Sequence record: PQ572755.1
Direction: 5' to 3' (one strand)
Source: Escherichia phage CAU_ECP01
DNA length: 64,000 nucleotides
This document shows, piece after piece, positions 2,904 through 30,552 of this stretch. The position numbers were made by a program, and so were the translations under genes. Position 1 is the first letter of the stretch. Each line of letters begins with the position of its first letter. The notes beneath the pieces are model-generated. The model did not search any database. It was not told the origin of the DNA and saw only the letters and a list, made by a program, of their open reading frames with translations.

Positions 2904-5159
2904 ATGCAAGTAACTAAGAGCAGTGGGGTATCCCAAAATTTTGATGCACAGAAAATTATTCAAGTATTAACTTGGCAATGTGAAGGAACACAAATTGACC
3001 CATATGAATTGTACGAAGAAATTAAGACCCATCTTGTCGACGGGATGAGCACCAAAGATATCCAGAAGATTTGTATTAAAGTTGCAGCTAACTCGATTTC
3101 TGTCGAAGAACCTGATTATCAGTATGTCGCCGCCAAAGGGCTAATGTTTGCACTTCGTAAAGATGTATATGGGCAGTTTGAACCGCCTGCTTTTATCGAC
3201 CATATTTCTTATTGTGTTAATGAAGGCAAATACGACCCTGAGCTGTTGTCTCAATATTCAGCAGAAGAAATCATTTATCTCGATTCACAGATTAAACATG
3301 AACGAGACTTTGACCTGACTTATGCTGGTGCTATGCAGCTTAAAGAAAAATATCTAGTTAAAGATAAAACAACTGGGAAGATTTATGAAACTCCACAGTT
3401 TGCTATCATGGCTATTGGCATGGCCTTACATCAAGACGAAACTCATGACCGTTTGAAACATATTATTCGTTTTTATGATGCCGTTTCTACTCATCAAGTT
3501 TCATTGCCAACCCCAATTATGGCAGGTGCTCGTACTCCAACTCGCCAGTTCTCTAGTTGTGTAGTTATTGAAGCCGGTGATTCGTTAAAATCTATTAACA
3601 AAACTTCAGCATCAATTATTGAATATATTTCTAAACGAGCTGGTATCGGTATCAACGTTGGTATGCTTCGTGCAGAAGGTTCTAAGATCGGTATGGGTGA
3701 AGTTCGACATACAGGTGTTATTCCATTCTGGAAACATTTCCAAACTGCAGTAAAATCTTGTTCTCAAGGTGGTATTCGTGGTGGTGCTGCTACAGCGTAT
3801 TATCCGATGTGGCACTTAGAAGTAGAGAACCTATTAGTTCTGAAAAATAACAAAGGCGTGGATGAAAACCGTATTAGACATATGGACTACGGAATTCAGA
3901 TTAATGACCTTATGATGGAACGCCTTGGTAAAAATGATTATATTACTTTATTTAGCCCTCACGAAATGTCAGGCGAACTATACTACTCGTTCTTTGAAGA
4001 TCAAGATAAATTCCGTGAGCTTTATGAGAAAGCTGAAAAAGACCCAACAATCAGAAAGAAAAGAATCAAAGCACTAGAACTCTTTGAATTGTTCATGACT
4101 GAACGCTCTGGTACTGCTCGAATTTATCCACAATTCGTTGATAACACGAACAACTACACTCCATTTATTCGTGAAAAAGCTCCAATTCGACAGAGTAACT
4201 TATGTTGTGAAATCGCTATTCCAACTAATGATGTGAATGGTCCTGATGCTGAAATTGGTTTATGTACGTTATCTGCTTTTGTATTAGATAAATTTGATTG
4301 GCAAGACCAAGATAAAATTAATGAACTGGCCGAAGTACAAGTACGTGCACTTGATAACTTGTTAGACTATCAAGATTATCCGGTTCCAGAAGCTTTAAAA
4401 GCTAAAAAGCGTCGAAATCTCGGTGTTGGTGTGACGAACTATGCCGCATGGTTAGCTTCTAACTTTGCTTCATATGAAGACGCTAACGATTTGACTCATG
4501 AATTGTTTGAGAGATTGCAATATGGCCTTATCAAAGCTTCAATCAAACTCGCCAAAGAAAAAGGACCTTGTGAGTATTATTCAGACACTAAATGGTCTAG
4601 AGGCGAATTACCTATCGACTGGTACAATAAAAAGATTGACCAAATCACAGCCCCGAACTACGTCTGTGACTGGGAAGAACTTCGAGCTGAACTCAAAGAA
4701 CATGGAATTCGTAACAGCACACTTAGTGCTCTCATGCCATGCGAATCAAGCAGTCAAGTCTCAAATAGCACAAACGGTATAGAGCCACCTCGTGGACCTG
4801 TAAGTATTAAAGAATCTAAAGAAGGCAACTTCCGACAGGTTGTTCCTAATATTGAACACAACATGGGTCTTTATGACTATGCGTGGAAACTCGCTAAGAA
4901 AGGTAATAAGCCTTATCTGACACAAGTTGTTATCATGTTAAAATGGGTGTGCCAATCTGCTTCTGCTAATACATACTACGACCCTTCAGTCTTTGAGAAA
5001 GGCAAAGTGCCAATGTCTGTAATGCTTGATGACTTGCTTTACTTCTGGTACTTTGGTGGTAAGAACCTTTACTATCATAACACTCGAGATGGTTCTGGTA
5101 CAGATGACTATGAGTTAGAAACGCCTAAAGCTGAAGATTGCTCCGCTTGTAAGCTTTAA
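2904..5159 (+). CDS. nrdA: aerobic ribonucleotide reductase large subunit
   Basis: 751 aa; class Ia RNR alpha with ATP-cone N-terminus and C-terminal CxxC tail (CSACKL); T4 NrdA-like. Confidence 0.95.
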   Translation: MQVTKSSGVSQNFDAQKIIQVLTWQCEGTQIDPYELYEEIKTHLVDGMSTKDIQKICIKVAANSISVEEPDYQYVAAKGLMFALRKDVYGQFEPPAFIDHISYCVNEGKYDPELLSQYSAEEIIYLDSQIKHERDFDLTYAGAMQLKEKYLVKDKTTGKIYETPQFAIMAIGMALHQDETHDRLKHIIRFYDAVSTHQVSLPTPIMAGARTPTRQFSSCVVIEAGDSLKSINKTSASIIEYISKRAGIGINVGMLRAEGSKIGMGEVRHTGVIPFWKHFQTAVKSCSQGGIRGGAATAYYPMWHLEVENLLVLKNNKGVDENRIRHMDYGIQINDLMMERLGKNDYITLFSPHEMSGELYYSFFEDQDKFRELYEKAEKDPTIRKKRIKALELFELFMTERSGTARIYPQFVDNTNNYTPFIREKAPIRQSNLCCEIAIPTNDVNGPDAEIGLCTLSAFVLDKFDWQDQDKINELAEVQVRALDNLLDYQDYPVPEALKAKKRRNLGVGVTNYAAWLASNFASYEDANDLTHELFERLQYGLIKASIKLAKEKGPCEYYSDTKWSRGELPIDWYNKKIDQITAPNYVCDWEELRAELKEHGIRNSTLSALMPCESSSQVSNSTNGIEPPRGPVSIKESKEGNFRQVVPNIEHNMGLYDYAWKLAKKGNKPYLTQVVIMLKWVCQSASANTYYDPSVFEKGKVPMSVMLDDLLYFWYFGGKNLYYHNTRDGSGTDDYELETPKAEDCSACKL

Positions 5160-5175
5160 GAATTTTGTTTATAAT
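5152..5175 (+). promoter_or_regulatory. putative middle promoter for nrdB
   Basis: AGCTTTA (MotA-box-like) 5152-5158 overlapping nrdA stop; TATAAT 5170-5175. Confidence 0.4.
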
Positions 5176-5193
5176 TGACTCATGGATGAGTCA
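5176..5193 (+). promoter_or_regulatory. perfect palindrome TGACTCAT-GG-ATGAGTCA in nrdB leader (candidate operator)
   Basis: 8-bp arms with 2-bp spacer, immediately 3-prime of the -10 and 17 nt before the nrdB ATG. Confidence 0.4.
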
Positions 5194-5209
5194 CTATTGA
5201 GAGAATATA

Positions 5210-6388
5210 ATGAGTACAGTTTTTAATACCCAAAAAGTTGATGTTTTGAATGAACCAATGTTCTTTGGTTCCGGTCTTGGCCTTGCGCGTTACGATATTC
5301 AACGCCATAAAGTTTTTGAAGAGCTTATTGAAAAGCAATTGTCGTTTTTTTGGCGCCCTGAAGAGGTAAACTTGATGTTGGACTCTGCGCAGTTCAATAA
5401 GCTTCCACAGTTCCAACAGAACATCTTTACGAACAACCTTAAGTATCAATCATTATTGGATTCTATCCAAGGCAGGGCACCATCTGCGGTACTTATGGCA
5501 TTGCTTTCCGACCCTTCATTAGATACATGGGTTGCTACATGGACATTCAGTGAAACCATTCACTCTCGTTCATATACTCATATCATGCGAAATCTTTATA
5601 CTGATCCATCGAAGGTATTTGATGAGATTGTATTAGATGAAGCAATTATGAAACGTGCGGAATCAATCGGCAAATATTATGATGATGTTCTAGTTAAAAC
5701 ACGTGAATGGGAAAATGCTAAAGAAATTTTTAAATGTTTTTCCGAAAATGAATATGATTTGGATGCATATTCAAATAGTCTTATGCATGTGGAAGAATGT
5801 AAACGTGCATTAATGAAATCTCTTTATCTCTGTTTACATGTTATCAACGCCTTAGAAGCTATTCGTTTTTACGTATCATTTGCATGTACTTTCAACTTCC
5901 ATAAGAACATGGAAATCATGGAAGGTAATGCAAAGATTATGAAGTTTATCGCTCGTGACGAACAACTCCACCTTAAAGGCACTCAGTACATTATTCGACA
6001 GCTCCAACTTGGTGTTGATGGGGATGAATGGGTTCAAATTGCTAAAGAGTGTGAGCAAGAAGCAGTAGATATCTTTATGGAAGTAAATAGTCAAGAGAAG
6101 GAATGGGCTGCACACCTCTTTAAAGATGGTACATGTCCAGGTATCAATACGCAGAGTATGTGTGCTTTTGTTGATTACTTGACTGTGTCTCGTATGAAAC
6201 AGTGCGGTTTGCCATGCCCAATCACTGATGCTCCGACCAAGCATCCGTATCCTTGGATTCGTGAATATCTGAACTCAGATTTAGTTCAAGCAGCTCCTCA
6301 GGAAGTTGAAATCAGTTCTTATCTTGTCGCACAAATTGATAATGATGTAGACCAAAATGTAATCAATTCATACAAAAAATATTTCTAA
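5210..6388 (+). CDS. nrdB: ribonucleotide reductase small subunit, uninterrupted (no intron)
   Basis: 392 aa; diiron/tyrosyl-radical R2 family; continuous ORF at T4-like length. Confidence 0.95.
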   Translation: MSTVFNTQKVDVLNEPMFFGSGLGLARYDIQRHKVFEELIEKQLSFFWRPEEVNLMLDSAQFNKLPQFQQNIFTNNLKYQSLLDSIQGRAPSAVLMALLSDPSLDTWVATWTFSETIHSRSYTHIMRNLYTDPSKVFDEIVLDEAIMKRAESIGKYYDDVLVKTREWENAKEIFKCFSENEYDLDAYSNSLMHVEECKRALMKSLYLCLHVINALEAIRFYVSFACTFNFHKNMEIMEGNAKIMKFIARDEQLHLKGTQYIIRQLQLGVDGDEWVQIAKECEQEAVDIFMEVNSQEKEWAAHLFKDGTCPGINTQSMCAFVDYLTVSRMKQCGLPCPITDAPTKHPYPWIREYLNSDLVQAAPQEVEISSYLVAQIDNDVDQNVINSYKKYF

Positions 6389-20260: not shown

Positions 20261-22348
20261 ATGTCTGAACAATTAAATGAAGTGTTTGAATCTGAAGGCA
20301 GTCTTCCTGTCGTCAATTTGAACCCTAAAGCTAAAGTTCCACAAGTCTGGAAAATTGGTGATATCGATACAAACATCGTAGTCCGTTTATTCTCTTACCT
20401 TTCCGAAGGCGATGCTGTAAAACAAGTTAAACTTGGTGACAAATACGCTCATGTCGTTATTATGAGTCTGTCTGAAAAGGGTAATCTCGCTGAATTGAAA
20501 AATGGCCTTGGTCCTGCTCCTATTGATGCAATCAACACCATTTTCAATACAGTGTATGAACAGGTTAAAGCTCTTCGTATGGATGCAGTTCTGTTCCGAT
20601 TCCCTACCAAGAAATTGAAAGGACGTGGACAGCAGCTTCAAACTCTTCTTGCTCGTTTAGTTTCTACTAAAACTGGTGGTCGTTTTAAAGTGTTGTCGGC
20701 AATGTATCAATTCACAGGTAAACACACCTATGTGATGATGGTTCGTAAAAATGCCAACATTGAAGATATTAAAGGCATCCCTAACATTAACACAGAGTTG
20801 TACACGAAAGTAGATTCTGATGTTGGCGAAGTTTATGTGAGTAAAAAGACTGGTGAAAAGGTCACCAAAGAAACGGCTATCGCTGGTTCTATTGCTGCTG
20901 TAGAAGAAAAACGTAAAGATAAGCCTGTTATTGCTCGTACTAAAATTTCTCGTCGTGCTATTGCAGCAAGTCAATCTTTAGAAGCTGACCGACAAGAAGG
21001 TGAGTTATTCCAGAAATACGAAAATTCTGCTAAAGAAGTTAGTGGCCCAGCTACAGCCGAATTACTTCCTGAAGCATATGAAATTGTACTAGCCCAAGCA
21101 TCGTCCACAGCAAAAGGCACTTTAGTTGCTGATATCGAAAATAAGATTTATAATCGTATTGATGAATCCTTTAAATTTGCTGATGAAGTTTCTTATGGTA
21201 GTGTTATTAAGCCGACTTTAGAAAAGTTTGCTAAGAAAATTAAAACTGAAAAAACAACATCTGTTAAAGCATTAGCCGCTTTTGTTGAAGCTGCAAACGA
21301 AATTGCAGACTCTATTAGAGACGAATGGTTTGAAGATTTTAGACGTGATAATTTCCAACTGCCTGACGATGTTTTAGCTGAAGTATCTGAAAGAACTTGG
21401 AAACAACGTAAATCAGCGTTCTTGTCTAATGTGATGTATACTTATGCACGAGAATCGGCTAGAGGCACCTTTAATATAACAATGAATCGGGACCCTAAAC
21501 AATACTCTGTTGCTGAAAAACGAGCTATTCGTGAATATGCCTCTTCTGCGTATACCGATATCAATAATATGTTGTTAGGTCGTTATAAACCAGATTTTTA
21601 CGATGTTGCAGATGAAGATGAAGTTAAACGCGCTATTGATGGTCTTGATTCGGCGTTTTTAAATGGAGACCGTTTACCTGAAGGACTAACGTTATATAGA
21701 GCTCAGTCTATCAGAATGCCTATTTACGAAGCAATGGTTAAAAATAAGGTATTCTACTTCAGAAACTATGTTTCCACTTCACTAGCTCCTATTATTTTCG
21801 GTGGGTTTAAAGAGAACGTTGCCCTTGGACTTGCTCCTGAAGAAGTTCGCAAAGAGCTTAACATTGACAATAATGACGAAGGTGTTACTATTTCTCCTAG
21901 TCAAGTAAGAACAGCTATGCATGCACCAGAACAAATCCGTGTTAACGTTGGATGGGCTATTGATGGCGCCCATAAAGTTAACGTGATTTATCCAGGACAG
22001 TTGAGTAATCACCCTAATGAGCAAGAAATTATTTTGCCTAGAGGCATTCTCTTGCAGATAAATAAAATTACAGATGCGTCATCTGACACTGGTGCAGGTT
22101 TAGAATCCAACCTTAAATTTATTCAAGCTGAAGTCATGTCCTCAGACCAGTTGGATGAAGCTGTCATTTACGATGGTGATGTTCTCATGGAAACAGGCGA
22201 GGTGGTTGCTATGACGGGTGAAATCGAATCAGATGAGCCGGTATCGTTCTCCTCATTTGTAGAAAAAACTAGTGCTCCTAAAGGATTGAAACTGTTAGCA
22301 TCTTTAATGGATTTGGAATCGGTTCCGTTTAAATTTGTTCAAGGATAG
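20261..22348 (+). CDS. alt: ADP-ribosyltransferase Alt (head-packaged)
   Basis: 695 aa; position between gene 30 and gene 54 as in T4; ART-like R / S-T-S / E motifs (LYRAQS, YVSTSL, QEIILPRG). Confidence 0.75.
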   Translation: MSEQLNEVFESEGSLPVVNLNPKAKVPQVWKIGDIDTNIVVRLFSYLSEGDAVKQVKLGDKYAHVVIMSLSEKGNLAELKNGLGPAPIDAINTIFNTVYEQVKALRMDAVLFRFPTKKLKGRGQQLQTLLARLVSTKTGGRFKVLSAMYQFTGKHTYVMMVRKNANIEDIKGIPNINTELYTKVDSDVGEVYVSKKTGEKVTKETAIAGSIAAVEEKRKDKPVIARTKISRRAIAASQSLEADRQEGELFQKYENSAKEVSGPATAELLPEAYEIVLAQASSTAKGTLVADIENKIYNRIDESFKFADEVSYGSVIKPTLEKFAKKIKTEKTTSVKALAAFVEAANEIADSIRDEWFEDFRRDNFQLPDDVLAEVSERTWKQRKSAFLSNVMYTYARESARGTFNITMNRDPKQYSVAEKRAIREYASSAYTDINNMLLGRYKPDFYDVADEDEVKRAIDGLDSAFLNGDRLPEGLTLYRAQSIRMPIYEAMVKNKVFYFRNYVSTSLAPIIFGGFKENVALGLAPEEVRKELNIDNNDEGVTISPSQVRTAMHAPEQIRVNVGWAIDGAHKVNVIYPGQLSNHPNEQEIILPRGILLQINKITDASSDTGAGLESNLKFIQAEVMSSDQLDEAVIYDGDVLMETGEVVAMTGEIESDEPVSFSSFVEKTSAPKGLKLLASLMDLESVPFKFVQG

Positions 22349-24814: not shown

Positions 24815-26587
24815 TTAATTAACACCGGTGGCATGGAAAATTCCAGGAGCCGTTGTACTTGTTACAGGGGTCATATTCTGGACTACGGTATTCTTTTTGA
24901 CGACATTATTTGTGTTACTAATCGCCGCTACCGGTTGCTGTTGTTTAGATTCAGAAGCACGTCCTTTCTCTATTGACTGAACTTGTTTTGCTTCTGGAGA
25001 TTTAGTCGAAGATTCAGGCTTAACTGTTGTCTGAGCCTTTTTGGCTTCAGCCATTTTATTATTTAGCTTTTCAAATCTAGCATCTATTTCCTTTTTAACA
25101 ACAGGAGTTTTATTAAGTTCAGGGTCTTTAATAAGTTTACTTAAATCAGCATAAGACTTCTCGACGTTTTTAGCATTTTCCGGATTAGTCATATCGATTT
25201 TATCGATATAATCCTCAAATCTAACCAGTGCAGCACGAGTTTCATTCGCTTTTATATACGCCTCTTTACGTTCCTCTTCAGGTAACTCTTTTAATTTTGC
25301 TGATTCCGCAGCGCGCTCATCACTTGTACTAAACTCTTCTTTATTGTCGTTACCACGAACCCAGTTAGTAACGAATGTTTTGCCGCGTTGTAACATATCA
25401 AGACCTTTAGAAACGGTTCCTAATTCCCCGTCGTCACGCTTCATTTGATATTTAGCGACTTTCTCTTGGTCTTCTTTCTTTAATTTGTTCCCAGTAGTTT
25501 CTTGGAATCCTTCTAAAGCACGTCCTTCTATTTCGTCTGCGGTATCACCAAAACCTATAGCACGCAATATAGACGCGGAGAGTTTAGCCATTCCTAATTG
25601 AATTAGTTCACCTAAGTTCATTAATGCTGTTCCTACACCTTTGACAATAGCAACGGTTAAACCACCCCAGTCTCCGGCTTCCCACAATTGTTTTATCGAG
25701 TCAATAGAAGTGAATATATCGCTTAAGAATTTACCCCACTCTTTAGCTTCATCGGAGAATTTAGTAAAGTTTTCATCAAATAAATCCCAGGCAGAAGTGA
25801 ACTTGTCAGTCCAATATTTGAAATGGACTATCAATAAATCAATACCGATAACAATACCAAGAATAAGTGCGGCCATTTTTGCTGCTTCAATAGCAGCCGT
25901 TATAGTGTATTTGAAAAGCATTCCAGCAATTCTGTCTGAAATTGATATTGATTTATTAAACCCGGTTTGAACTGTTTTGGTGAGCATTGCAATTTTATCG
26001 CTCAATTTAAAGCTAATTCCGCCTTTAGAATCGGAAGTAGAATTAGCACTTTCTTGAACCGGGGCTGGGAAGAAATCTTCGTCTGGCTTATTATCAATCT
26101 TTTCAGGTGTAGGTAATGCTTTAAACAACTCATCAGAAGTTTCGTTCTCAACCACTTTAACAGGTATTGCGTTCTCAATTACTTCAAGAGAGGTGCCTCC
26201 TGTATTTTGAATAGCGGTAGATGTTTGTAATTTTTGCTCTAATAATGTAGCTAATCGGTCTAACTTAGAGTTTATTGCATTAGAAACTTCGTTTATACTT
26301 TTAGTGACTTCAGTTTGTTTTTCAATAACTTCTGCGATAAGCTCTGTGCCTTCAGCAGTATTATCTGTCGAATTCTTTAAGTCTCCAATTGATTCAATAA
26401 TTCCATTGCCTTTATCTTCTACACTTTGCGATGTGAGTTCAGACGCGGCTTGGACATCGTCTAGTTTTGATGAAATATCATTCAATGCTTCTAATGAATC
26501 GGTAGCTGCTGTTGCAGCTACTTTTTGTGGTTTATTATCGGCAATGACCTTATTTCTACGCATGGATTTCATTTCTTCAGGTTTCAT
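24815..26587 (-). CDS. 29: tail-length tape-measure / baseplate hub protein gp29
   Basis: 590 aa (T4 gp29 590 aa); synteny. Confidence 0.8.
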   Translation of the reverse strand: MKPEEMKSMRRNKVIADNKPQKVAATAATDSLEALNDISSKLDDVQAASELTSQSVEDKGNGIIESIGDLKNSTDNTAEGTELIAEVIEKQTEVTKSINEVSNAINSKLDRLATLLEQKLQTSTAIQNTGGTSLEVIENAIPVKVVENETSDELFKALPTPEKIDNKPDEDFFPAPVQESANSTSDSKGGISFKLSDKIAMLTKTVQTGFNKSISISDRIAGMLFKYTITAAIEAAKMAALILGIVIGIDLLIVHFKYWTDKFTSAWDLFDENFTKFSDEAKEWGKFLSDIFTSIDSIKQLWEAGDWGGLTVAIVKGVGTALMNLGELIQLGMAKLSASILRAIGFGDTADEIEGRALEGFQETTGNKLKKEDQEKVAKYQMKRDDGELGTVSKGLDMLQRGKTFVTNWVRGNDNKEEFSTSDERAAESAKLKELPEEERKEAYIKANETRAALVRFEDYIDKIDMTNPENAKNVEKSYADLSKLIKDPELNKTPVVKKEIDARFEKLNNKMAEAKKAQTTVKPESSTKSPEAKQVQSIEKGRASESKQQQPVAAISNTNNVVKKNTVVQNMTPVTSTTAPGIFHATGVN

Positions 26588-27117
26588 TCAAGCAATCCAA
26601 TAATTTCTGCTATACCCTTAATAGGACCATTAGGGCCTGGAATAGCAATAGTTGTCGAAAGGTCTTCTGCCCATTTGATTACAAAAGCAGGCATCTCAAG
26701 GAAAGAAATTTCTTTCTCTTCGTCATTAACTTTTATTAAGCAATTTGATAACATTTCACTGATTGTAGCGAATTGTTCAAATTTGCCTGGAGGTCTAAAA
26801 TAAAAAGTATTGCCTTGGAATTGGAATTCTGTTCGTTGGCATACATAGACGTCATCTAGCTTATATGTGAATCCGTCTTTTTCAACTTCAGACTTAAGTT
26901 TGTTATTAAATTCCAATATATGTAGACATGCAAAATCAAAATCAGCAGGACTCATATTTTTACAAATAGAATCAGCTAAGATTTTCATGTTTTCATCAGG
27001 GCCTTTAACGTCCTTTAAAAGATTATAATGTTTGAGCCCTAATTTGGGAATCATTACCTTTTTATTAGACTGTGGTAGAATTATTTTCTTTAGAGGTAGA
27101 ATCAGATTTAAGTTCAT
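26584..27117 (-). CDS. 28: baseplate hub distal subunit gp28
   Basis: 177 aa as in T4 gp28; alternative start at 27054 (156 aa) has a better SD and avoids the 53-nt overlap with gene 27. Confidence 0.65.
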
Positions 27118-28237
27118 TTTTAACCTTAACTGGGTTAACAGGTTCTAACACCATTGAGTTGGTAAACATGTACAGATGAGTTTGTGAGTTGTTATTTGAT
27201 AACTCATGAATAACTTCATCCACGTAAAATTCGGATTTGAATTGGTTCTTTTGGTCAACAAATATAATTTTAGTAGCAGGCGTTATGTTAAAATTACCTG
27301 TAGTAGTGCATTTAGCATAACCGTCGTATTGAGCCATTGTCTGAAGACGACTTGCTTCTTCAAATCCGTTACGATAGGTCATTTCGGAATATCCGCCGGA
27401 TCTTGACACAAGAATAGCATTATCACCGTCGCCAGTAACAATAACTGGAATAGATGTATCTAAAAATGAATGGGCGAATATTGTGGCGTTTTTAATAGGG
27501 TCTCTTGTAAATTGGTTGGCTTTAGTCATCCAGGTAAAATCCCATACTAATGGATACTCAAGCTCTTGAATATACTGACCTACAGTATTTGGCTCACCTA
27601 CAATCATCTTAATGCCTTCTTGACCAATAAGAGTATCGTAGTCAATCATGTTTACGCCTAAAATATCTTGCCATACGAATACGAACTTATCACTCGCTGT
27701 AGCAAGTCCTAATTCTCTGACATATGCCAAATAATCATCAAATGTGCTTGTCCAAGGAATATCAGGAACATAAGCATTAATAGTGTTTATTGGCGGAGTA
27801 ATTAACGTACGGTCTTTATATATGACACCTAACATTTCACGTATAGATTCGCCTGCGTCCGGGAAGAACGGACGCCCAAATTTAAGGTTCTCTATAGAAT
27901 GTATTGTTCCAAGCTCAATTGCAATAATATTGTCACCTTTTGAGTCCACAGACACAGAATAATGTCTACATCCGTAAATTCGAGTTCTAACTTGGAGAGG
28001 TGTGTTTGAATTTGAAACAGAGATTTGGACTATCTGCCTACCATCCATTTTAGTGTGGATGTTTTTAGTGTCATAAAATTGAAGAATCCCTTCATTTCTT
28101 CCATATAGCGAATCTCGCATGGTTAAAGTTGTTATTGTTGCAGCGAGTTCAACGTATCTATTTTCTTGCCAAGCCGAATAATCTTGATATAATTTAACGC
28201 TTAAGTTAGGATATCCTGGACGTTGGAATACTGTCAT
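27065..28237 (-). CDS. 27: baseplate hub subunit gp27
   Basis: 390 aa (T4 gp27 391 aa); synteny. Confidence 0.8.
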
Positions 28238-28986
28238 TTTTTATGGTCCTTTTCTACTAATGTTAAAGCAATACCACGTTCAACAGGAATCATTTGCATA
28301 ATAGAATCCAATGTGTATTGACTCTTTACTAGTGAATGGTTTATCTGATAGAATGTAAAAATCTCATCAGGGTTAACTAACAATTTAAAAACCTCTAAGA
28401 TATCAGTATATGTTTTAACATGGCGTTCACAACAACCTAATCTAAGGGTCAAATTAATAGGGTTCATAGAAGCAATAACCTTCTCGAGAGAGTCAATGTC
28501 TATTGCTTCTATTACTTGGATTTGGTTCTCTTCAGTCAAATCATTCCATGGGTACCATTCATCATTATAATATATTTCTTTTATGTTTTCACTTATCATT
28601 AATGCTTTATTGTCATAAAACTTTTCAGGGAAAGAAAAACGTATTTTTATACCAGCAACATCAAGTTCAGGTTCGACTAGTTCTTTTTGATATATCTCAA
28701 ATGGTGCAGTTTTTTCTTTAGAGCATTTAGGGCAAGTGAAAATAACGGGAACTTTTGTTTTGCCTATAGAGCCTGCAAAAACTTGCAGGAATATAAATGG
28801 TTGCCATGTTTTAGGGTACTCGCCAAAATAATCATCAATCAGATCGGCAATTATTTCTTTTTGTTCTTGTGGCGAACGATGTTCGATATCATTTCTAACT
28901 AGTAAAAAGTCTCTATAATCCGCCACGGTGAACGGCTTGAAACGATGAACACCATCCGGTAATTTACAACGAATTATATTAGCCAT
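28234..28986 (-). CDS. 51: baseplate hub assembly protein gp51
   Basis: 250 aa (T4 gp51 249 aa); paralogous to the adjacent gp26 over its C-terminal ~150 aa. Confidence 0.7.
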
Positions 28987-29003
28987 AATTACTCCTTTTC
29001 TAT

Positions 29004-29011
29004 TATTTATA
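29004..29011 (-). promoter_or_regulatory. late promoter (TATAAATA) for gene 51
   Basis: TATTTATA on the plus strand, 18 nt upstream of the gene 51 start codon. Confidence 0.6.
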
Positions 29012-29015
29012 AATA
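29008..29015 (+). promoter_or_regulatory. late promoter (TATAAATA) for gene 26
   Basis: TATAAATA overlapping the minus-strand late box by 4 bp; 19 nt upstream of gene 26 ATG. Confidence 0.6.
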
Positions 29016-29033
29016 CACAATAAAGGAGTTAAC

Positions 29034-29660
29034 ATGTACAAATATACGTTTACCGTACGTTTAGGCGATAAAGAAGTGAATTGTAGAGCCTTTACTTTAA
29101 AAGAATATTTAGGACTCATAGGTGCGCGGGCTACCGGTACTATTGAATCAGCAGTGAACAATATTATCACTAATTGCTCTAATGCTAAAAACTTGACTAA
29201 ACAAGAAGCCGAGCTATTGTTGGTAAATCTGTGGGCACATTCATTAGGTGAAGTGAATCAAGAACACACCTGGAATTGTTCCTGTGGGCATTCATTTCAA
29301 GTCTATATGAATTTATTGCACACTCAATTAGATGAACAGGCGGATCCCTGGTATTCGTTCAGTGGTATTAAAATTAAGTTCCGTCAACCTAAATTATTTG
29401 ATGATAAAAATATCGCATTAATGATTGCTTCATGTATTGAGGCTGTTTTTGTCAATGGAGAGTCCATCCCTGTTGAAGATTTAACTGAAGCAGAAATAAA
29501 CGACCTTTACGGCCTTATAACAGAAGATGACATGATTAATATTAAAAATCTTTTGGTATCACCGTCAATTTATCTGGCAACCCCTATTAAATGTCCCAAA
29601 TGTGGGGCGTCACACGTTCACACAATACGAGGCCTCAAAGAATTCTTTGAGTTACTATAA
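29034..29660 (+). CDS. 26: baseplate hub protein gp26
   Basis: 208 aa as in T4 gp26; Cys motifs (CSC, CPKC). Confidence 0.7.
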   Translation: MYKYTFTVRLGDKEVNCRAFTLKEYLGLIGARATGTIESAVNNIITNCSNAKNLTKQEAELLLVNLWAHSLGEVNQEHTWNCSCGHSFQVYMNLLHTQLDEQADPWYSFSGIKIKFRQPKLFDDKNIALMIASCIEAVFVNGESIPVEDLTEAEINDLYGLITEDDMINIKNLLVSPSIYLATPIKCPKCGASHVHTIRGLKEFFELL

Positions 29661-30058
29661 TGTCTAATATCAATAAACTTTATTCAGATATCGACCCAGA
29701 AATGCGTATGGATTGGAACAAGGACGTTGCTCGTTCTGTAGGACTTCGTTCTATTAAAAATAGTCTTCTTGGTATAGTGACAACTAGAAAAGGCTCACGC
29801 CCCTTCGACCCTGAATTTGGATGCGATTTGGTTGATGAACTTTTCGAGAACATGACACCACTTACAGCCGATACGATTGAGCGTAATATCCAGGCAGCTG
29901 TTCGTAACTATGAGCCACGCATCGACAAACTTTCTGTAAGTGTAACGCCAGTATATGATGACTATACAGTTATAGTAGAGATTAGATTTTCGGTCGTAGA
30001 CAACCCTGATGATATCGAACAAATCAAACTTCAGTTAGCGTCAAGCAATAGAGTGTAA
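29660..30058 (+). CDS. 25: baseplate wedge protein gp25
   Basis: 132 aa; nearly identical to T4 gp25 (INKLYSDIDPEMRMDWNKDV...DIEQIKLQLASSNRV). Confidence 0.9.
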   Translation: MSNINKLYSDIDPEMRMDWNKDVARSVGLRSIKNSLLGIVTTRKGSRPFDPEFGCDLVDELFENMTPLTADTIERNIQAAVRNYEPRIDKLSVSVTPVYDDYTVIVEIRFSVVDNPDDIEQIKLQLASSNRV

Positions 30059-30138
30059 TGCTTCAAGGCAACCTATGTATAATGGTTTTAGGTCCTTCCG
30101 ATACAGCCGGGAGATTATTAGTTAAAAGAGAGAACATT

Positions 30139-30552
30139 ATGAAGCTGGAAGATTTACAGGAAGAGTTAGACGCAGACTTAGCTATTGATACGACAAAGTT
30201 GCAATATGAGACGGCGAATAATGTTAAGTTATACAGCAAATGGCTACGTAAGCACTCATTTATTCGTAAAGAAATGTTGCGTATAGAGACTCAGAAGAAA
30301 ACTGCTCTAAAAGCAAGATTAGACTACTACTCGGGACGAGGTGATGGTGATGAATTCAGTATGGACCGATATGAGAAATCTGAAATGAAAACTGTCCTGG
30401 CTGCAGATAAAGATGTGCTTAAAATAGAGACTACTTTACAATACTGGGGAATTTTACTTGAGTTCTGTAGTGGTGCACTTGATGCAGTCAAGTCTCGTAG
30501 TTTTGCACTTAAACATATTCAAGATATGCGAGAATTTGAAGCGGGGCAATAA
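30139..30552 (+). CDS. uvsY: recombination mediator UvsY
   Basis: 137 aa from ATG 30139; MKLEDLQEEL...LQYETANNV...YWGILLEFCSGALDAVKSR matches T4 UvsY; the track ORF start at 30058 is an upstream in-frame extension. Confidence 0.9.
   Translation: MKLEDLQEELDADLAIDTTKLQYETANNVKLYSKWLRKHSFIRKEMLRIETQKKTALKARLDYYSGRGDGDEFSMDRYEKSEMKTVLAADKDVLKIETTLQYWGILLEFCSGALDAVKSRSFALKHIQDMREFEAGQ

Follow-up and report, generated by a model that had tools for sequence, protein, structure and literature searches.

Genes 51 and 26 of this phage are, very probably, neighboring paralogues transcribed divergently from a single compact late control region that works in both directions. Within the window (the whole stretch of 64,000 nt analyzed here), gene 51 (28234..28986, minus strand) encodes gp51, a baseplate hub assembly catalyst of 250 residues, and gene 26 (29034..29660, plus strand) encodes gp26, a baseplate hub assembly chaperone or hub subunit of 208 residues; a sequence-only reading had placed both open reading frames at these same positions. 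The window comes from a Mosigvirus, a T4-like coliphage, and the locus is 100% identical to that of Escherichia phage PECP20 and 99% identical to that of Mosigvirus PhAPEC2. Pfam matches identify the neighbors of the pair as gp25, gp27 and gp28, with gene 28 (26584..27117, minus strand; hub distal subunit gp28, 177 residues; PF11110, E 1.4e-81) lying two genes downstream of gene 51 on the leftward strand. The order of this hub cluster, 28-27-51 and, divergently, 26-25, is alike in the window, T4 and seven other phages. T4 genetics established that hub assembly needs gp26 and gp51, which are viewed as chaperones or a catalyst and not as parts of the final baseplate. One publication (PMC3004832) lists both proteins as chaperones of hub assembly and notes that the finished particle lacks gp51, although gp51 is needed.

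Common descent of gp51 and gp26

The sequence-only reading had proposed that gp51 and gp26 are paralogues, and statistical comparison of the two proteins bears this out. BLASTP aligned residues 8-203 of gp51 with residues 9-208 of gp26 at 25% identity (E 2e-10), and the Smith-Waterman score of the pair was 113, as against 31.5 +/- 4.9 for shuffled sequences (z 16.6; 0 of 2000 shuffles reached the score). The profile alignment of the gp26 and gp51 families that the same reading had called for returned a significant similarity over 190 columns (hhalign, probability 99.3%, E 2.9e-20), and T4's own gp26/gp51 pair aligned at 20% identity (E 1e-5). We assigned proteins to Pfam family PF12322 (T4_baseplate) on the basis of a full-length match above its gathering score of 24.5 bits; gp51 (200.2 bits, E 4.6e-59, residues 1-201) and gp26 (203.5 bits, E 4.5e-60, residues 1-206) both belong to it, each matching positions 1-219 of the 219 in the profile. 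Both proteins also match PHROG 150 (E 4.7e-89 for gp51, E 7.3e-66 for gp26). These data support the view that gp51 and gp26 are true ancient paralogues of the T4_baseplate family. The opposing view, that their resemblance reflects chance or composition with no common descent, could appeal to the low identity of the window and T4 pairs, and we give it next to no credence; it is refuted by the shuffle, profile-profile and HMM statistics, in which one curated HMM is matched by both proteins at about 200 bits, and it sits poorly with predicted models that share the order of their elements and a structural match at a TM of about 0.7.

Two parts of the original proposal need amendment. The peptides quoted for the resemblance (one of 26 letters, one of 41 letters and DLTEAEINDLYGLI) are all present, but the similarity, which had been ascribed to about 150 C-terminal residues, extends further, and homology covers all of gp26. 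Likewise, the ancient duplication that had been suggested is supported as old within the Straboviridae but is not seen in every T4-like lineage, with exceptions among marine phages and cyanophages.

gp51 has a composite structure and consists of a gp26-like core (residues 1-203) and a C-terminal three-helix module. The gp51-specific extension (residues 204-250; 28237..28377, minus strand) comprises about 47 residues that are absent from gp26, with helices at residues 208-221, 226-231 and 234-249 in the AF2 model. PHROG 634, annotated as "hub assembly catalyst", matches residues 147-248 of gp51, and PF28602, precomputed as a second domain, is found in all full-length gp51 homologues. It is quite conceivable, if somewhat short of probable, that gp51 arose by fusion of a duplicated gp26-like core to an older, small "gp51" module that stands alone in cyanophages. 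Marine T4-like phages and cyanophages are reported to have just a short, C-terminal gp51, with a length of about 20% in cyanophages and a marine vibriophage (PMC3037559), and short representatives (P0226, 80 aa) are confined to positions 189-249 of the profile. In addition, gp26-type proteins are far more diverse in sequence than full-length gp51-type proteins, and one marine contig carries a gp26-type gene without a divergent partner. Truncation in the marine lineages would nevertheless account for the same data, and the 86-aa open reading frame beside that marine gp26-type gene bears no similarity to gp51.

Overlapping late promoter boxes between genes 51 and 26

The intergenic control region (28987..29033) spans 47 bp and is nearly symmetric, with the arrangement ATG-N5-AAAGGAG-N5-palindrome-N6-AAAGGAG-N5-ATG. 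It contains a perfect 12-bp palindrome, TATTTATAAATA (29004..29015), in which the sequence-only reading had recognized a late box on each strand. This description is exact: a plus-strand TATAAATA box (29008..29015) precedes genes 26-25, a minus-strand TATAAATA box (29004..29011) precedes genes 51-27-28 onward, both are identical to the late promoter consensus, and the two divergent boxes overlap by 4 bp. Placing transcription starts at the usual T4 late position, about 6 nt past the box, predicts starts near 29021 and near 28998, respectively. Shine-Dalgarno sequences (AAAGGAG) are located 5 nt before the ATG of gene 51 (28992..28998, minus strand) and 5 nt before that of gene 26 (29022..29028, plus strand), and the distance from each late box to its own ribosome site is about 5-11 nt. 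Across the window, we observed 16 TATAAATA boxes against 7.5 expected.

The palindrome TATTTATAAATA is identical in 8 of 8 T4-like genera, represented by the genomes of T4, Moon, Cronus, Marfa, Henu6, TG1, Acj133 and the window, and the spacer around it varies; IME13 carries a 10-bp variant, TATTTAAATA. Both boxes thus present the exact 8-bp element of T4-type late promoters and a short-leader placement before a late gene that is conserved in relatives, and both are annotated as T4-type late promoters in a 98.7%-identical GenBank record (OL960576, Mosigvirus SA79RD).

The dyad symmetry of the element, perfect here, is typical of dimer binding sites, and T4 DsbA binds with low affinity to A/T-rich sites that overlap two late promoters (Geiduschek review, PMC2988020). 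On these grounds the palindrome might be mainly the site of a dimeric DNA-binding regulator such as DsbA, with one box or neither acting as a promoter. We consider this very improbable. Each half of the element matches the late consensus at 8 of 8 positions and is followed closely, on its own strand, by a ribosome site and a start codon; the flanking late genes both need a promoter, and the 47-bp spacer holds no late box besides the overlapping pair; moreover, the roles of regulator site and promoter are not exclusive. In T4, the late promoters of 26 and 51 were reportedly described in 1989 as overlapping and divergent, with both starts mapped, which also speaks against a palindrome that serves a regulator alone, and they are said to be listed as such for that phage.

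Late transcription in T4 is carried out by the host RNA polymerase together with the phage sigma factor gp55, gp33 and the gp45 clamp. With the palindrome read as a double late promoter, this polymerase would open the DNA at one TATAAATA box or the other, and the two open complexes would probably be mutually exclusive because the boxes overlap. Each predicted mRNA would begin some 6 nt beyond its box, where the AAAGGAG ribosome site lies, and this site is separated from the ATG by 5 nt. Genes 51, 27 and 28 would be carried by the leftward message (in T4 and IME13, 29-48-54 come next) and genes 26 and 25 by the rightward one, so that hub subunits and assembly factors would be made together, late, from a single control region. 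The perfectly conserved palindromic double promoter offers a natural system in which two overlapping gp55-dependent promoters occupy one stretch of DNA.

Predicted fold and cysteine pattern

The structure predictions that the sequence-only reading had proposed yielded high-confidence AF2 models for gp26 and gp51 (pLDDT 92.4 each), with secondary-structure elements in the same order, and a Foldseek query with the gp26 model retrieved gp51-type proteins at a TM of about 0.7. In these models, the shared fold is predicted to start with an N-terminal β-hairpin followed by three helices and to include two further β-hairpins, each with a Cys pair at its tip, between which an α/β domain of about 95 residues is inserted. 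When the PDB was searched by sequence, using either single proteins or profiles as queries, no solved relative turned up for gp26, gp51 or gp28, and NCBIfam assigned none of these proteins to a family.

The paired Cys motifs noted in the sequence-only reading, CPKC...CC in gp51 and CSC...CPKC in gp26, are both present and form a four-Cys pattern common to the two proteins. In gp51, the first knuckle, C85-P-K-C88 (28723..28734, minus strand), is invariant among 31 gp51 sequences and occupies the modeled turn between strands 78-84 and 91-97; the second, C185-C186 (28429..28434, minus strand), is likewise invariant among gp51 sequences, occupies the turn between strands 179-184 and 188-193 and aligns with C187/C190 of gp26. 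In gp26, the first knuckle, C82-S-C84 (29277..29285, plus strand), falls in the modeled turn between strands 75-81 and 87-93, with C82 invariant and C84 present in 24 of 27 sequences, and the second, C187-P-K-C190 (29592..29603, plus strand), falls in the turn between strands 179-186 and 193-199, is invariant among gp26 sequences and coincides with weak Pfam zinc-ribbon matches. The four Cys columns align between gp26 and gp51. Both Cys pairs are kept in 117 of the 142 family sequences compared, whereas a further 14 retain three Cys, the fourth position often being taken by H, D or E, and 3 lack all four.

Both models thus place a ligand pair at each of two β-hairpin turns, and the four ligands are conserved across the family, as expected of a zinc ribbon. 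No curated zinc-ribbon family was matched above threshold (best E 0.005-0.13, all below gathering scores), and zinc-ribbon families gave the sole weak sequence matches of the gp26/gp51 family in the Cys analysis. Judging from the models, the Cys hairpins of gp26 and gp51 most likely constitute a split zinc ribbon, predicted to hold one structural Zn. The four conserved Cys might instead form disulfides or have another non-metal role, a reading that we regard as unlikely. The adjacent Cys of the second gp51 knuckle would be unusually arranged for a pair of ligands that share a zinc and awkward for tetrahedral coordination, and some lineages, as well as gp28, have no Cys at all. However, gp26 and gp51 are cytoplasmic assembly factors and work in a reducing compartment, their Cys pairs cap two β-hairpins in the manner of zinc ribbons, missing Cys are often replaced by the alternative metal ligands H, D or E, and the weak sequence matches point to zinc-ribbon families. 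Under the split zinc-ribbon reading, the metal would not be essential to the fold, because these Cys are missing altogether from every gp28 sequence and from a handful of members of the family. We found no report of metal binding by gp26 or gp51 in the literature searched.

The predicted arrangement resembles zinc-ribbon domains of the Elf1, IS1595 transposase and LysW types, in which two β-hairpins likewise each bear a Cys pair where the chain turns. Unlike in the usual zinc ribbon, about 100 residues, including an entire inserted α/β domain, separate the two knuckles in gp26 and gp51, and one CxxC is replaced by CxC in gp26 and by CC in gp51.

gp28 and relationship to known systems

The superfamily defined by gp26 and gp51 has a third, remote and Cys-less paralogue in gp28. 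An hhalign comparison of gp28 with diverse gp26-type proteins gave a probability of 92.2% over 170 columns (E 5.9e-7), with a score of 47.4 where decoys scored at most 17.5, and HMM scores for gp28 were 17.8 and 15.5 bits, compared with 11.3 bits for the best of 7200 shuffles. The gp26 model also matched IME13 gp28 in Foldseek (E 2.4e-6). A clear signal required the more diverse gp26-type profile: less diverse profiles or a single sequence gave hhalign E values of about 0.01 at 3-5% probability, and pairwise shuffling gave z values of 2.5 and -0.1. A statement of this relationship between gp28 and gp26/gp51 was not found in the literature searched. In IME13, gene 28 lies directly upstream of gene 29, and the record of phage Moon annotates a gp27-gp28 "GT-like" fusion.

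The paralogy of gp26 and gp51 is itself already known in the form of a single Pfam family (PF12322) and a single PHROG (150), and both late promoters are known from their annotation in OL960576; the sequence-only reading had allowed that the relationship might be known. The literature searched contained no explicit statement of the paralogy. By itself, the finding recovers from the sequence alone what textbooks describe for T4 and brings no new biology. What the present analysis could add is the split zinc-ribbon Cys pattern and the placement of gp28 as a third paralogue. Together with the confident models, the conserved four-Cys site and the evidence for a single family, whose N-domain may be chaperone-like, provide handles for work on tail assembly, and specialists in that field may find these side results modestly useful.

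Among the known systems closest to gp26 and gp51 are tail assembly chaperones (TAC), such as HK97 gp10 (PDB 2ob9) and YqbN (3klu). We tentatively raise, as a possibility about which we remain doubtful, that gp51, gp26 and gp28 form a three-member TAC-related family, with gp26 and gp51 stabilized by the zinc ribbon, whose members would together be the long-missing tape-measure and hub chaperones of T4 and would hold gp29 while gp27 and gp5 assemble around it. If true, this would explain both the "catalytic" behavior of gp51 and the absence of all three proteins from solved baseplate structures. The Pfam scan for TAC families was essentially negative (2 of 78 family members hit Phage_TAC_3, E 0.11), and genes 26 and 51 are not adjacent to gene 29, which encodes the tape-measure protein.

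The most direct comparison is with T4, in which the genes follow the same order, 28-27-51 and, divergently, 26-25-uvsY, and gp26 and gp51 show the same Cys pattern. T4 gp28 (PF11110) shows full-length remote homology to gp26-type proteins, a similar predicted fold and a place in the same hub gene cluster, and differs from them in lacking the knuckle Cys, in its shorter chain, which lacks part of the helical region, and in belonging to a separate Pfam family. The same TATTTATAAATA lies between the start codons of T4 genes 26 and 51, in a spacer of 50 bp as opposed to 47 bp in the window, with different flanks. Finally, gp26 and gp51 of the window are about 62% and about 72% identical to their T4 orthologues, respectively, with no functional difference apparent.

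Homology of gp51 and gp26

Over 28100-29800 the sequence shares 100% identity with Escherichia phage PECP20, ~99% with Mosigvirus members such as PhAPEC2 and ~69% with T4. Pfam searches on the surrounding ORFs agreed with the gene names given by the sequence-only reading, identifying gp28 (26584-27117; E 1.4e-81), gp27 (27065-28237; two domains, E 5.4e-117 and 6.9e-91) and gp51 (28234-28986; E 4.6e-59) on the minus strand, and gp26 (29034-29660; E 4.5e-60) and gp25 (29660-30058; E 4.8e-19) on the plus strand.

That reading had proposed gp51 and gp26 to be paralogs, citing peptides from their last ~150 residues, every one of which we found in the ORFs. BLASTP aligned gp51 8-203 with gp26 9-208 (25% identity, E 2e-10), and the local alignment score of 113 was reached by none of 2000 shuffles (31.5 +/- 4.9, z 16.6). 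A pairwise profile alignment of the two families (27 gp26 and 31 gp51 sequences) was also significant (hhalign probability 99.3%, E 2.9e-20, 190 columns), and relatedness is detectable in T4's own gp26/gp51 pair (E 1e-5). The similarity is therefore real, but its proposed extent was too small, since these alignments cover the whole of gp26; gp51 carries ~47 extra C-terminal residues. Both proteins match the entire profile of Pfam PF12322 ('T4 bacteriophage base plate protein') with ~200 bits, as well as PHROG 150, and member names in the two groups include 'gp26 family baseplate hub assembly chaperone' and 'T4 family baseplate hub assembly chaperone'. The Pfam description of PF12322 reportedly names gp51 and gp26 as members. 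With one curated Pfam model and one PHROG for both, their relationship is already known.

Predicted fold and paired cysteines

AlphaFold2 models of gp26 and gp51, calculated from a joint alignment of 78 sequences, had a mean pLDDT of 92.4 each and pTM values of 0.85 and 0.87, respectively. Consistent with the shared fold that had been suggested, both present the same order of elements: a beta-hairpin and three helices; two beta-hairpins, a helix and a beta-hairpin; and two helices, a last beta-hairpin and a helix, followed in the gp51 model by three further helices (208-249). A Foldseek search of predicted viral structures with the gp26 model returned gp26 proteins at the top, then gp51-type proteins (~250 aa; query TM ~0.7, E to ~1e-15), and also 'baseplate hub' proteins from a wide range of distantly related myoviruses (Campylobacter, Bacillus SP-15, phiRSL1 and PaBG among them). 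Sequence and profile searches of the PDB found no solved structure of any gp26, gp51 or gp28 relative.

The paired Cys motifs noted in both proteins do correspond, with C82, C84, C187 and C190 of gp26 and C85, C88, C185 and C186 of gp51 forming four aligned columns. In the models every pair lies in a beta-hairpin turn (a knuckle), a zinc-ribbon layout interrupted here by a ~95-residue inserted domain. Searching 1.84 billion representative proteins with a profile yielded 1535 family members at E <= 0.001, and cysteines were compared in 142 sequences, comprising 140 of the listed representatives (at least 165 aa) and gp26 and gp51 of the window. Both pairs are present in 117 of the 142, three cysteines in 14 (the fourth place often being H, D or E) and no knuckle cysteine in 3. 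Outside the family, weak sequence matches were to zinc-ribbon proteins only. From the aligned and conserved cysteines, their predicted hairpin-turn placement and these matches we infer, with good support, that gp26 and gp51 are putative zinc-binding proteins; a literature search found no report of zinc binding by either. The adjacent CC of gp51 is unusual as two ligands to one zinc. The gp51 proteins of Klebsiella phages in protein cluster P0204 (names including BL02, KpF2 and vB_KoM-Liquor) are full length and have lost all four knuckle cysteines, providing a natural test of the need for the putative metal site.

The Foldseek matches also included T4 gp26' (95 aa, UniProt Q8SDG4), the position of whose internal in-frame start is matched by ATT codons at gp26 I112-K113-I114 (29367-29375, plus strand); a gp26'-type product would contain the second Cys knuckle only.

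Extent and age of the family

Evidence for a further homologue came from gp28 (26584-27117, minus strand). PHROG 1140, the gp28 group, matched gp26 weakly (E 0.002), and first comparisons were unconvincing (hhalign E ~0.01; pairwise shuffle z 2.5). A gp28 HMM scored 17.8 and 15.5 bits on two gp26-type representatives, compared to 11.3 for the best of 7200 shuffled sequences, and the gp28 alignment matched that of 71 diverse gp26-type proteins over 170 columns, the full gp28 length (hhalign probability 92.2%, E 5.9e-7), with a score of 47.4 against at most 17.5 for decoys (1 reversed, 20 column-shuffled). Independently of these sequence tests, a 175-aa protein of Stenotrophomonas phage IME13 was a Foldseek match to the gp26 model (E 2.4e-6); it is gp28 by its record and by hhalign (E 3.8e-44). 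These comparisons show gp28, which has none of the knuckle cysteines, to be remotely homologous to the gp26/gp51 family along its full length, giving the hub cluster three paralogues. No statement of this relationship was found in the papers searched; it may already be present in database clan assignments.

Gene 28 starts before gene 27 ends, with an overlap of 53 nt (27065-27117, minus strand). The phage Moon record joins gp27 and gp28 as a 'GT-like fusion' (UniProt name 'tape measure chaperone'), implying a proposed frameshift product.

Three of the best four structural matches of gp26 were 3fgx (uncharacterised protein RBSTP2171, score 5.5), 2ob9 (HK97 tail assembly chaperone, 5.0) and 3klu (YqbN, 4.8), and 2ob9 (4.3) and 3fgx (4.2) were within the best six for gp51; these scores are low, the matched stretches are 59-78 residues long and there is next to no support from sequence. 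We hypothesize that a gp26/gp51 domain is related to tail-assembly chaperones, an idea that fits the biology, since gp26 and gp51 act in assembly alongside the tape measure, and that is also consistent with the Moon annotation.

The divergent gp51/gp26 pair was found in all nine Straboviridae-type loci examined. On a Tara Oceans scaffold, a marine 233-aa family member (5001-5702) follows gp2-like and gp3-like/tail-tube-like genes (PF23849 Phage_TTP_2), and neither a divergent gp51 partner nor an upstream palindromic late box was found at this locus; the divergent pair is thus not universal among T4-like phages. With separate HMMs, numerous ~230-aa representatives scored 60-85 bits as gp26-type versus 25-50 bits as gp51-type, and full-length gp51-type clusters were few, which makes gp26-type look like the widespread form. 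Sullivan et al. described gp51 of cyanophage and marine vibriophage origin without the first ~200 residues (PMC3037559). gp51 may have arisen when a duplicated core was fused to an older, small gp51 module; alternatively, truncation may have produced the marine forms. An 86-aa ORF beside a marine gp26-type gene, tested as a short gp51, showed no similarity.

Divergent late promoters

The palindrome TATTTATAAATA at 29004-29015 is identical to its reverse complement and therefore presents TATAAATA on both strands (29008-29015, plus; 29004-29011, minus; 4 bp in common), exactly as had been claimed for this 12-bp element. Boxes of TATAAATA type number 16 in the 64-kb window versus 7.5 expected. 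The 47-bp gp51-gp26 spacer is nearly symmetric, with AAAGGAG ribosome sites at 28992-28998 (minus) and 29022-29028 (plus), each 5 nt from its ATG and separated from the palindrome by 5 and 6 nt, respectively. T4 late transcripts usually start ~6 nt past the box, and mRNA starts are predicted near 28998 and 29021, at the ribosome sites. The palindrome is identical in all eight spacers compared (the window, T4, Moon, Cronus, Marfa, Henu6, TG1 and Acj133), which differ in flanks and length (47-66 bp). In IME13, which is more distant, the region 20830-20877 contains an intergenic palindrome of 10 bp, TATTTAAATA; each strand there reads TTTAAATA, which differs from the late consensus at one position, and the two boxes share 6 bp. 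Both boxes are annotated as T4-type late promoters in the Mosigvirus SA79RD record (OL960576, 98.7% identical to the window); the double promoter between genes 51 and 26 is therefore previously annotated.

Late in infection, RNA polymerase bearing gp55, assisted by gp33 and the gp45 clamp (PMC2988020), would open either one face of the palindrome or the other, the two open complexes being presumably mutually exclusive because their -10-type elements overlap. The leftward message would encode gp51 (a hub-assembly factor), gp27 (a hub subunit) and gp28, after which come, in T4 and IME13, gp29 (the tape measure), gp48 and gp54; the rightward message would encode gp26 and gp25. The T4 literature lists gp26 and gp51 as hub assembly chaperones, and describes gp51 as essential, yet missing from the particle and of unknown function (PMC3004832).

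The gene 26 stop and gene 25 start overlap in TAATG (29658-29662, plus), preceded in the region 29625-29662 by GAGG (29630-29633, plus) with a perfect hairpin after it, CTCAAAGAA/TTCTTTGAG (centroid -7.4 kcal/mol, z -1.85). This junction matches the split ribosome-binding-site arrangement of T4 gene 25, attributed to Nivinskas and Malys where PMC3014915 cites them. The uvsY ORF (30058-30552, plus) encodes 164 aa from its first ATG, as annotated in a close relative. T4 UvsY has 137 aa, the conserved sequence begins at M28 (30139) and the relative's record places a predicted middle promoter within the additional 5' segment; the longer start is therefore probably incorrect.

As given, the finding is of low interest; the modest value added lies in the probable zinc site, in gp28 as a third paralogue and in a domain that may be chaperone-like. 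Overlapping promoters from which this T4 baseplate cluster is transcribed divergently were reportedly described by Scarlato et al. in Virology in 1989. Taken together, the paralogy and the divergent promoters are confirmed as observations and supported in their interpretation, and both are already known for T4 and encoded in public annotation.
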